A program made the position numbers. 46,314 nt of DNA, from the IMG/VR virus record IMGVR_UViG_2880361019_000007; one strand, 5' to 3'. The stretch comes from a virus (Duplodnaviria > Heunggongvirae > Uroviricota > Caudoviricetes). Shown here piece after piece: positions 15,001 to 18,000 of the stretch; positions within the stretch are counted from its first letter, which is position 1, and the number at the start of each line of letters is the position of its first letter.

Positions 15001-18000
15001 TCCCTAATAATGCGGGGATCCTGCTGGTACCATGCTGTCGTGGTGGTTCGGCATTCACCCAGGGCTCGGAGGGGACATTCAGCGAGTCCACGGGGGCCAG
15101 TCAGGATTCGGCTCGCTGGGGAGTGGGTAAGCCGTTATATCAGGATCTGCTTTTCCGCACGAAGGCAGCATTGCAGAAAAACCCGAAAAACGTTTTGCTG
15201 GCGATATGCTGGATGCAGGGGGAATTCGATATGACGAATGCCAGTTACGCCCAGCAGCCAGCAGCATTTCTTGCAATGGTACAGCAGTTCCGTGCTGACC
15301 TTGCCGGGCTGGCGGCGCAGTGTCACGGTGGAAGTCCGGCATCAGTCCCCTGGATTTGTGGCGACACGACATACGCGTGGAAACAAGAACACGGTACGCA
15401 ATATGAAGTGGTATATGGTGCATATAAAGGTAAAGAATCCCAGCAGATTTATTTTGTTCCCTTTATGACCGATGGTAGCGGAGTTAATACACCGACAAAC
15501 AACCCGTCAGAAGATCCTGATATTGTCGGGTCTGGTTATTACGGTTCGGCATCCCGAACGAACAAAAACTGGGTATCATCAAATCGCCCGACGCATTTCA
15601 GCTCATGGGCGCGTCGTGGCATTATTCCCGATCGTATGGCAACCGCTATTCTGAACGCAGCCGGGCGCACCTCAGCCTTCATCAGTGGTAAGGCACCGGA
15701 AATCAAACCCTCGCCCGGCGGCGACACGCCATCGGGTCCGTCTGCAGATACGTCCGTTCGCACAATCTCCCTGCTGCCGACAGCCGGAGAGGCTGCTGCG
15801 CAGGGCTGGACCATTAAGGACGGCGGAATTCAGTTGTCGGGTGGTGTATTTAAGATCGCCAAGCAGAGCAATAAAACCTGGTCCTTGACGCGCCCGGTGG
15901 ATGACGCAGTCTCCCTGCTGACACGGGGTGGCAGACTGAGCTGTAAGTTTCGACTGTCAGGCGCACTGACCAACAATCAGTTCGGTCTGGGAATTTATCT
16001 GTATACCGATGTAGCGTTACCTGACGTCGTGGCGATGACGGGTACCGGTAACCCGTTCCTGATGTCGTTCTTCACCCAGACCACAGACGGCAAACTGAAT
16101 CTGATGCATCACAGGAAAGCAGGAAACACAAAGTTGGGCGAGTTCGGGAATTACAGTAACGACTGGCAGACGCTGGAGCTGGTGTTCACCGCCGGCAGTG
16201 CCACGGTTACTCCGAAACTGAATGGAGTGGCTGGCCCGGCATTCCAGGTCATAAAAGACAGTCTGACACTGGGGCTGAATGCGCTGACGCTGACGGATAT
16301 TACCAAAAATGCAGCGTATGGCGTTGAGATAGAAAGTCTGGTGCTGGAGATAAATGCACCGGCATCATCATAAAAAGTGAGCCAGTCAAATGGAAGGTAT
16401 CGTTAAACTCACCGGTAGTGTCAGTGGGTCGTCTGAGATGCCTGCATGAGTTATCAGAGCCATCAGTACTTAACTGGTGGCTTTTTTTATTGTTGTCAGC
16501 TTCCGGATAACGGGAGACGGGGTATGTACCAGATGGAAAAAATCACAACAGGTGTGTCATACACCACGTCAGCGGTGGGAACGGGCTACTGGTTCCTGCA
16601 GTTGCTGGACAGGGTTTCCCCGTCTCAGTGGGCGGCAATAGGCGTGCTGGGAAGTCTGCTGTTTGGGCTGCTGACATATCTGACTAACCTGTATTTCAAA
16701 ATCAGAGAGGACCGGCGTAAGGCCGCCCGGGGAGAGTGAATAATGAACCATGAAGAAATGAATCAGCGCTTCAGTCGCCTGGAAAATGAAATTGCTGAAC
16801 TGAATAAAAAACTGTCGACGCTGATGCCTTCTGAAGATGAAAAAAAACGCCGCGATGAGCAGTTTGCTGCGTTTGACGATTATTGTCGGAAAGTGATGAG
16901 CAAAAATCTCGCAGAGTGTTTCAGTATTCATAATGATAATTTCAGTGAGCTGGAATGGGAGTGTAACCGGCCATCCTTTGTTGTATCCGGTGATGCCGGG
17001 AAAATAACCATCTCAGAAAATGGGAAAGTAACACCTCCATCGCACCAGCACAGTGAGGAGCTCATTGAATTTGCCATTGATTACCTGAAGAACAATAAAA
17101 AGCAGGGGCTGATGAAGCGCGTTGGCCGTTGCATGGGATATCTTCAGGTAGCCGCTGAGATTGAAGCGCTGGCCAGTGGTGCTGATAAGGATGCAATTGT
17201 GCGGGAGGCTCTTCTTCGTGATTTTAATACTCCACCCTTTAAAAAAGTGCCGGCTTACTGGCTTCATCCGGGGCTGACTTATCTTAAAGTGCGTATTTAG
17301 TGGGCCAGGGACAGCGGCTGAATATTTAATATATCCATGAACACCAAAATCAAATACGGCCTGTCGGCTGCCGTTCTGGCGCTGATTGCCGCTGGTGCGT
17401 CTGCGCCTGACATTCTCGACCAGTTTCTGGATGAAAAGGAAGGCAATCACACCACGGCATACCGTGATGGTGCAGGTATCTGGACCATCTGCCGTGGTGC
17501 CATCATGGTGGATGGCAAACCTGTCGTTCCGGGCATGAAGTTGTCGAAGGAAAAATGCGACCAGGTTAACGCCATTGAGCGTGATAAAGCGCTGGCGTGG
17601 GTGGAGAAAAACATCAAAGTGCCATTGAGCGAACCCCAGAAAGCGGGGATCGCGTCATTCTGTCCGTACAACATTGGTCCCGGTAAGTGTTTCCCGTCGA
17701 CGTTTTATAAACGAATTAATGCAGGTGATCGCAGGGGAGCGTGTGAGGCGATTCGCTGGTGGATTAAGGACGGTGGCAGAGACTGCCGTATTCGTTCAAA
17801 CAACTGCTACGGTCAGGTATCCCGTCGTGACCAGGAGAGCGCGCTGGCGTGCTGGGGTATCGACAGATAAGCAGAATATTTTGCTGAAAAATAAAGCATG
17901 GCCACGCGGGCGGATAACATGAAATCCTGCGAACTGGCGAAACGTAAGTGAATAAAAGTAAAAACCCCGTTTGTTGGCACCAAGCGGGGTTTTGTGTTTC

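Follow-up and report, generated by a model that had tools for sequence, protein, structure and literature searches.

A probable DUF1327-less YdfR-family accessory gene in the optional slot between the holin and endolysin genes of an Escherichia coli lambdoid prophage

The lysis genes of the viral record IMGVR_UViG_2880361019_000007 raise the question of what is encoded by a 185-amino-acid (185-aa) open reading frame (ORF) that separates the holin gene S from the endolysin gene R. The window, meaning the whole stretch of 46,314 nucleotides (nt) that was analyzed, is an Escherichia coli lambdoid prophage. The encoded protein is very probably a dispensable, late-expressed, soluble accessory protein, an isoform of the PHROG 1085 family that lacks DUF1327. 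The whole explanation proposed here, a late-operon accessory gene carrying a binding or adaptor module of the DUF1327 pathway, is on balance probable. The lysis region is composed of the following features.

16524..16739, + strand: holin S, an S21-type class II pinholin of 71 aa (PF04971, E 2.3e-32; PHROG holin families)
16729..16736, + strand: Shine-Dalgarno sequence GGGGAGAG, inside the 3' end of the holin gene (from the sequence)
16743..17300, + strand: the 185-aa ORF, from the ATG at 16743 to a TAG that ends at 17300
17301..17336, + strand: spacer or short R leader of 36 nt (comparison of eight loci)
17337..17870, + strand: endolysin R, lysozyme family (PF00959, E 2.4e-24; PHROG 7, endolysin)
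18169..18633, + strand: Rz i-spanin (PF03245, E 5.7e-52)
18389-18571, + strand: Rz1 o-spanin embedded in Rz, a 60-aa ORF with a lipobox-like LVVVGC

An earlier inspection of the window made without database searches (the sequence-only reading) had reported an AT-rich ORF between a pinholin and a signal-arrest-release (SAR) endolysin, and both the position and the composition were borne out. The true start of the holin was placed at 16524, within a dual-start MYQM motif with Met codons at 16524 and 16533, and its TGA occupies 16737-16739; RefSeq annotates the identical 216-nt coding sequence. The gap between this stop codon and the ATG of the 185-aa ORF is 3 nt (ATA), and the ATG lies 8 nt downstream of the GGAG within GGGGAGAG. 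The N terminus of R contains a Gly/Ala-rich, weakly hydrophobic SAR-like segment (MNTKIKYGLSAAVLALIAAGASAP) and is R21-like. The GC content of the 185-aa ORF is 45.2% (44.6% at third codon positions), compared to 54-55% for its flanking genes (S, 54.6%; R, 53.9%).

The identity of the protein was deduced from family profiles. Pfam (E ≤ 0.01) and NCBIfam scans gave no family for it, while PHROG 1085, a family of unknown function, matched residues 1-185 at profile positions 117-296 of 296 (E 7.7e-113). Profile positions 1-116 were left unmatched, and the full three-module architecture of the family was therefore not found. Full-length members of PHROG 1085, the "YdfR family," consist of module A (DUF1327), module B (a coiled coil of ~60 aa), and module C (~110 aa), with B2 as an optional insert module. 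No Pfam match to DUF1327 was obtained in the ORF, and the best tblastn hit of DUF1327 over the whole window had an E value of 0.36. The two modules assigned to the window protein are the following.

16743..16952, + strand: module B, residues 1-70, two helices, acidic (pI 5.1) (AlphaFold2 [AF2], PHROG, tblastn)
16953..17297, + strand: module C, residues 71-185, an orphan alpha/beta domain (AF2, conserved columns, ratio of nonsynonymous to synonymous substitution rates [dN/dS])

These assignments are supported by the extended YdfR-family proteins, namely, phage 86 gp05 (YP_794052.1; 268 aa), the Stx2_95 protein (BCI50300.1; 329 aa), and the AVS0973 form (296 aa). All occupy the same slot, beginning 3-5 nt past the holin stop codon, and contain the same coiled-coil and C modules. 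Phage 86 gp05 and the Stx2_95 protein begin with DUF1327 (PF07041, E ~1e-45), whereas the window protein is without this ~110-aa N-terminal domain. The C-terminal ~115 residues are nearly unchanged among the three, the shared C-terminal part of the window protein being 83-92% identical to the other two, and the extended proteins fall into the same 90%-identity protein cluster as the window protein. The first ~40 residues of the window protein differ, representing another allele of the coiled-coil module. Over 182 aa, the window protein was 87% identical to an intact 296-aa DUF1327 protein, the match covering the last two thirds of the latter. From these comparisons, the window protein is interpreted as a DUF1327-less B-C isoform of an extended YdfR-family protein.

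Module B was modeled by AF2 as helices 3-27 and 31-61, with a predicted local distance difference test score (pLDDT) of 85-89 across residues 1-20, and the heptad positions of the first helix are taken by F10, L13, I17, L20, L24, and L27. Module B is common to proteins with other heads or tails, as indicated by matches to PHROG 2091 and 15975, and by tblastn other slot ORFs matched only residues 1-65 of the window protein. Module C of the window protein has the motifs that are invariant in the family alignments, GRCMGxLQVAAEIEA, DFxxPPFK, and WxxPGxxYLKxRI. A nucleotide alignment of the slot genes revealed mosaic joints, and the modules were found in the combinations below.

A: K-12 YdfR and an Stx2c phage, 103-115 aa
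A-B: PhiR12, 169 aa
A-B-C: several E. coli prophages, 287, 296, and 329 aa
A-B2-C: phage 86 gp05, 268 aa
B-C: the window, 185 aa
B-B2-C: several E. coli prophages, 208-217 aa
B followed by unrelated sequence: Stx2_14040, 162 aa

E. coli K-12 YdfR (b1555, prophage Qin) is 103 aa long, consists of DUF1327 only, and is encoded in the same slot as the window ORF, at 4 nt from the holin gene essQ compared to 3 nt in the window. No BLASTP alignment was obtained between K-12 YdfR and the window protein, and YdfR is linked to the family via the fused forms.

That the window protein equals the C-terminal two thirds of a fused gene could also mean that it is a functionless remnant, a 5'-deleted relic of a 296- or 329-aa DUF1327 gene whose frame is open by chance and which is carried along. 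Many truncated or partial family members in the databases would agree with this, as would the window prophage being ridden with insertion sequences (IS) and the slot ORF of Stx2_14040 (162 aa), which resembles a B module running into antisense sequence. The following data make such a remnant very improbable. The identical 185-aa protein is already public as WP_001015163.1, which is found on 240 contigs and listed by RefSeq as a hypothetical protein, and several further 185-aa clusters have 78-338 members each. DNA matching the ORF was present in 811 of 5,426 complete E. coli genomes, at least 80% of the ORF being covered in 250 of the 5,426. For the last 115 codons, dN/dS was 0.16-0.39 between the window and three relatives and 0.16-0.40 over all six pairs of the four alleles, and the C-terminal domain thus appears to be under purifying selection. 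The start codon is a proper one, located at a coupled position with a Shine-Dalgarno sequence, and the C domain was modeled confidently on its own. The E. coli B-C isoforms measure 185, 208-209, 213, and 216-217 aa and form clusters of up to several hundred members; B-C forms also occur separately in Salmonella (165 aa) and in metagenome contigs (125-184 aa). Since B-C isoforms recur, the window protein is not a one-off truncation. A truncation artefact or pseudogene was accordingly largely rejected, on dN/dS, abundance, and the recurring B-C isoforms. Two antisense ORFs (16569-16931 and 17013-17450) were dismissed as shadows, as they are not kept in a diverged relative (locus L003). It was concluded that the 185-aa ORF is a genuine gene rather than a chance frame, from the 240 contigs with the identical protein, the genome coverage, dN/dS, and the nonconservation of the antisense ORFs.

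In Stx2_14040, the forward 162-aa ORF overlaps a reverse 233-aa ORF by ~250 nt and is probably a coiled-coil module truncated by insertion of the latter. Separately, the gene for the 296-aa protein (DUF1327, coiled coil, and C) was found to be entered in RefSeq, through the Prokaryotic Genome Annotation Pipeline (PGAP), as a 336-nt pseudogene with the description "YdfR family protein, incomplete, missing C-terminus."

L017, 1955-2845: 296-aa gene annotated as pseudogene
L018, 1955-2290: 296-aa gene annotated as pseudogene

The L017 ORF is open for all 296 codons, and the pseudogene status was therefore rejected as an annotation artefact; L018 bears the same annotation, the open frame having been read in L017 alone. 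In a large block of the sampled genomes, no feature ("none") was annotated over the C-domain DNA, and the C domain is thus hidden in those annotations.

The sequence-only reading had taken holin and endolysin genes to be adjacent in S21/R21-type cassettes, an expectation that was correct only in part. The occupancy of the slot was estimated from evenly spaced picks among 363 phage records matching the S-R region, the counts resting on the 51 sampled records in which both S and R were matched. In ~37 of the 51 the slot was empty and in ~14 it was filled, with inserts of ~0.32-0.40 kb or ~0.8-1.0 kb. Phage 933W has an empty slot, its R beginning 4 nt past the S stop codon on the same Shine-Dalgarno sequence inside S, while the Qin slot of K-12 is filled in the order essQ (holin), 4 nt, ydfR, and rrrQ (lysozyme). 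Since about three-quarters of the sampled related records, 933W included, have an empty slot, a role essential for lysis is weakened. The 185-aa protein is not part of the core holin-endolysin-spanin machinery.

The boundaries of the slot were compared in eight loci. In all eight, the first ORF past S begins 3-5 nt after the S stop codon, and the Shine-Dalgarno sequence in the 3' end of S is conserved, serving whichever ORF comes first. All seven of the slot-filled loci have an R allele starting with MN(T/A)KI together with a conserved R leader, which is 35 nt shorter in the window and Stx2_95 than in the other five slot-filled phages. The 35-nt segment in question (AGGGATTCGGAACCGATAAATCCTGATAAATATCC) is present in loci L002-L004, L007, and L008 and missing from the window and Stx2_95; it was apparently deleted between two ATATCC repeats. 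No obvious Shine-Dalgarno sequence was seen ahead of the R start codon in the remaining leader of the window, and the spacer at 17301-17336 holds no convergent small gene. Because the 3' end of S, the start spacing, and the R leader are kept while the contents vary, the slot is interpreted as a recombination-defined cargo site bounded by the conserved S 3' end and R leader. This is the already known polymorphic ydfR slot and hence no new arrangement; the slot is optional and shared by many E. coli lambdoid and Shiga toxin (Stx) prophages.

The expression of the gene was deduced from its surroundings. Promoters and terminators were sought by a consensus scan only, which returned no promoter-like site on the + strand from 16300 to 18200 and the following two hairpins.

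16456..16484, + strand: terminator-like hairpin and T-run, just upstream of the holin gene (consensus scan only)
17961..17993, + strand: strong terminator-like hairpin at the R/spanin junction, a 13-bp stem followed by a T-rich stretch (consensus scan)

A further terminator-like site near the ORF end (17259-17276) was weak and located inside the ORF, and neither the S/ORF junction nor the R leader gave a better RNA fold than shuffled sequences did. Since a local promoter-like site was lacking and Q lies upstream, and since the Shine-Dalgarno sequence lies inside S with a gap of 3 nt, the 185-aa ORF is deduced to depend on the late transcript modified by Q as its sole mRNA and on coupling to S for its translation. 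This agrees with the late coexpression that had been suggested for it. The accompanying term, a moron within the lysis cassette, applied in that the gene is extra, non-core, and of deviant base composition, but it failed in that no promoter and terminator of its own, as in a classical moron, were detected by the scan.

In the proposed mechanism, the 185-aa gene would fill the optional S-R slot as an accessory gene of the Q-dependent late operon, and ribosomes would translate it via the Shine-Dalgarno sequence in S, in the place that R takes in 933W. Its soluble, probably oligomeric cytoplasmic product would be made only after prophage induction and would act as a binding or adaptor module in the pathway of the often-fused DUF1327. 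Solubility and a cytoplasmic location are predicted because hydrophobic segments are lacking (hydropathy over 19 residues reaches 0.75 at most) and the N terminus is acidic; a signal peptide-like start is lacking as well. The protein is probably oligomeric.

When 1.84 billion representative proteins were searched with a profile, 43 proteins were retrieved at E ≤ 0.001. Several of the 43 (125-314 aa) match the C domain only, at ~31-39% identity to that of the window, among them proteins from Salmonella (P0166, 165 aa; P0161, 212 aa) and metagenomes (P0126 and P0133), which have the same motifs. Most of these proteins carry an N-terminal domain resembling DUF1327; in one, this head matched PF07041 with an E value of 0.0044, below the gathering score. 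The A-like-B-C order is thus considered to be an old architecture, because DUF1327-like heads are kept in relatives at 31-39% C-domain identity, and the persistence of the fusion speaks for A and C being functionally coupled. Distant B-C forms were found as well (Salmonella P0166 and metagenome P0135, the latter 184 aa).

In the contigs of the distant homologues the usual order is Q, toxin-antitoxin genes and/or DUF4406, the homologue, a small convergent ORF, and the lysis genes, the last comprising a PF16080 holin and then a lysozyme, or a GH108 lysin in one contig. As in the window, these homologues lie in the late operon by the lysis genes, but they are upstream of a holin of the PF16080 type rather than downstream of an S21-type holin, and they are usually followed by the small convergent gene that the window is without. 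The Salmonella homologue, for example, lies between Q and the PF16080 holin gene and not between holin and endolysin. The C-domain family thus appears to stay in the late operon by the lysis genes while being tied to no single holin or endolysin family.

A full-length AF2 model based on a shallow alignment of E. coli sequences only (mean pLDDT, 51.7) could not be used for the C domain. When residues 71-185 were modeled alone with the distant relatives added, the pLDDT was 89.1 and the predicted template modeling score was 0.81. In the modeled fold, a sheet of three strands is accompanied by three helices, a long loop that is conserved (DFxxPPFK...WxxPG), and a short helix at the C terminus. 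Foldseek comparison of this model to PDB and BFVD gave no match at E ≤ 0.001, and a sequence-profile search of PDB gave nothing below an E value of 0.039. The invariant residues (G128, R129, Q135, P165, K167, W173, P176, and Y180) would be more in keeping with a binding surface than with an active site.

A search of the literature on DUF1327, ydfR, WP_001015163.1, holin-endolysin gaps, and lysis-cassette hotspots retrieved nothing on the 185-aa protein or the slot, and the sole relevant publication was a paper on RNase E interactors (PMC13232886). There, two-hybrid and copurification experiments were reported to show binding of K-12 YdfR to residues 1-598 of RNase E, its N-terminal catalytic half, and weaker binding to RNase G, residues 1-72 of YdfR sufficed for RNase E binding, and RNA copurified with YdfR (PMC13232886). 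A role in the DUF1327 pathway is favored because the A-C fusion is kept across deep divergence and because the sole biochemistry of A concerns RNase E. By this analogy, a binding or adaptor role with a link to RNase E or RNA metabolism may be proposed, although in this specific form it is doubtful, as the RNase E-binding residues 1-72 of K-12 YdfR belong to the module that is missing from the window protein.

Several further points weigh against the proposed adaptor role. DUF1327 is found neither in the ORF nor elsewhere in the window, and the connection to RNase E is by fusion only. Overproduction of YdfR alters few transcripts (PMC13232886). The steady placement of the family by holins would suit a lysis-related role equally well. 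The IS insertions in the head-gene region may indicate that selection on the window copy is relaxed. An envelope defect of a ydfR mutant was recorded in a screen cited by PMC13232886; because ydfR sits between the holin and lysozyme genes, this defect could plausibly be due instead to polarity of the deletion cassette. A bolder possibility is that the C domain is an undescribed autonomous effector or adaptor that, with or without the RNase E-binding DUF1327 head, reprograms host RNA decay in the final minutes of the lytic growth of Stx-type and other lambdoid prophages; this was judged decidedly unlikely. If true, such an effector would adjust how stable the late mRNA is, on which the lysis genes and, in Stx phages, stx are encoded.

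The position directly after the holin gene, with translational coupling, could also indicate a modulator of lysis timing, which would bind the charged, cytoplasmic C-terminal tail of the holin or the membrane-tethered SAR endolysin and thereby delay or sharpen triggering. The distant homologues always adjoin a holin gene, even where the holin or lysin family is different, and a predicted coiled coil with a small binding-type domain would suit a regulator. P1 LydB and T4 RIII are soluble holin antagonists, and the likeness would be that of a small soluble protein encoded by the holin gene and made simultaneously. No sequence relation of the ORF to LydB or RIII was detected, however; a tblastn search of 50,697 phage records matched only 20 records, all of them lambdoid E. 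coli phages. All five PHROG matches of the protein were of "unknown function" and none was in the "lysis" category, and the protein has no membrane segment. The slot is empty in most of the sampled related records, 933W among them, and the Salmonella homologue is upstream of the holin with the convergent gene in between. Proximity is weak evidence in any case, since the Q-to-lysis region is a general cargo site of lambdoid late operons. A lysis regulator, which had been among the suggested roles, is on these data unlikely; the profile and structure searches yielded no homology to a characterized lysis regulator.

The convergent genes next to the C-domain genes bear on a third possibility, that of a conflict gene. 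In five loci, a convergent ORF of ~104 aa, belonging to PHROG 1853 (unknown function) and without a Pfam family, stands directly 3' of the C-domain gene.

L002, 3661-3975, - strand: ~104-aa convergent ORF
L003, 3154-3468, - strand: ~104-aa convergent ORF
L012, 585-902, - strand: ~104-aa convergent ORF
L013, 2378-2713, - strand: ~104-aa convergent ORF
L014, 495-812, - strand: ~104-aa convergent ORF

The PHROG 1853 ORF has diverged in parallel with the C-domain genes, with 37-45% identity between the E. coli phage and metagenome copies, which suggests that the two form a linked two-gene module. It is missing from the window, from Stx2_95, and from the 296-aa alleles, and, of 760 E. coli genomes that contain C-domain DNA, just 95 had it as a neighbor, a count subject to the sensitivity of megablast. 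Other variants of the slot hold different convergent cassettes.

L004, 2643-2903, - strand: 86-aa ORF labeled DUF1823 in the record (PHROG 2572; no match in the Pfam scan)
L008, 802-1503, - strand: 233-aa ORF without a family
L009, 6651-6941, - strand: 96-aa DUF1883 ORF
L011, 3871-4131, - strand: 86-aa ORF

The 185-aa protein might thus be made late to counter host defenses, or it might form a two-gene module with the convergent gene (such as an exclusion/immunity or toxin/antidote pair), which would have been lost from the window. The parallel divergence of the PHROG 1853 ORF to ~40% identity and the alternative convergent cassettes (DUF1823, DUF1883, and the 233-aa ORF) would be consistent with this, and low GC content and mosaic structure are typical of accessory conflict genes. 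Nevertheless, PADLOC-DB 2.0 assigned no defense family to the ORF, three relatives, or four convergent neighbors, the count of adjacent ~104-aa genes is low, and neither the window copy nor the most abundant alleles are accompanied by such a partner. A conflict gene was therefore rated rather improbable. In a variant of the RNA-decay proposal, the C domain would be antagonized by the codiverging PHROG 1853 protein, the two genes forming a late/lysogenic switch.

The remaining roles named by the sequence-only reading, an antirepressor-like factor or a host-directed effector (considered here as a secreted one), found no homology or fold support. A general precedent exists in the ant gene downstream of R in phage 86 and 933W. 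No Pfam or NCBIfam match to Ant, Bro-N, or KilAC was found in the ORF, however, PHROG likewise gave no match to Ant, Bro, KilAC, or effector families, and expression just before lysis fits poorly with an antirepressor. Either role is extremely unlikely.

With the accessory gene of the late operon retained as the preferred reading, the gene, the slot, and the family were already public, and the arrangement is present in E. coli K-12. What is made newly explicit is the modular dissection, the orphan C domain reaching Salmonella and metagenome contigs, and the linked convergent gene. The gene matters little if it is merely one more hypothetical protein in a known variable slot. The contents of the S-R slot are, however, expected to be expressed highly shortly ahead of lysis, from the late transcript to which stx also belongs in Stx phages, and its commonest occupants are proteins of uncharacterized function. 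The modular dissection and the codiverging convergent gene tie the slot to the recent report on YdfR and RNase E, and the PGAP pseudogene calls on intact 296-aa genes hide the C domain from annotation-based surveys.

The left part of the window contains, in order, the early region, DUF968, RusA, Q, a split DNA methylase, three tRNA genes, and a nanS-p-like esterase; these are followed by the genes for lysis, for the terminase, and for the head and tail, and then by lom and the tail fiber gene. The features outside the lysis region are listed below.

10888..11709, + strand: Q antiterminator gene, start of the late operon (PF03589 Antiterm, E 8.5e-51)
12284-13333, + strand: N6/N4 DNA methylase between Q and the tRNA genes, in two ORFs (PF01555 positions 1-85 and 110-219)
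13383-13632: three tRNA genes
14505..16373, + strand: nanS-p-like SASA-family sialate O-acetylesterase, late-operon cargo 5' of the lysis genes (PF03629, PF08410, PF20350)
17994-18167: 57-aa ORF with a hydrophobic C-terminal half, ending 1 nt before Rz (PHROG 6632, unknown function)
18941-19366, - strand: DUF1398 gene (YdfO-like), downstream of the spanins
26139-28300: IS block of ~2.2 kb between decoration gene D (25758-26105) and major capsid gene E (28361-29389)
26233-26742: IS200-like transposase, inside the D-E IS block
26944-27330: second, truncated IS200 copy, inside the D-E IS block
27265-27768, opposite strand: IS1 transposase, inside the D-E IS block
43605-45907, - strand: IS21-family element just past the tail fiber gene
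43605-44354, - strand: IstB-like ATPase of the IS21-family element
44366-45907, - strand: rve/Mu-type transposase of the IS21-family element

Given the IS in the head genes, the window prophage can probably no longer produce virions, although these insertions are located downstream of the lysis cassette. The split N6/N4 methylase is likely a frameshifted or interrupted pseudogene. The matching genome annotates the nanS-p-like gene as an SASA family carbohydrate esterase. The 57-aa ORF begins directly 3' of the terminator-like hairpin at 17961-17993, and the DUF1398 gene mirrors the position of ydfO in the Qin prophage of K-12.

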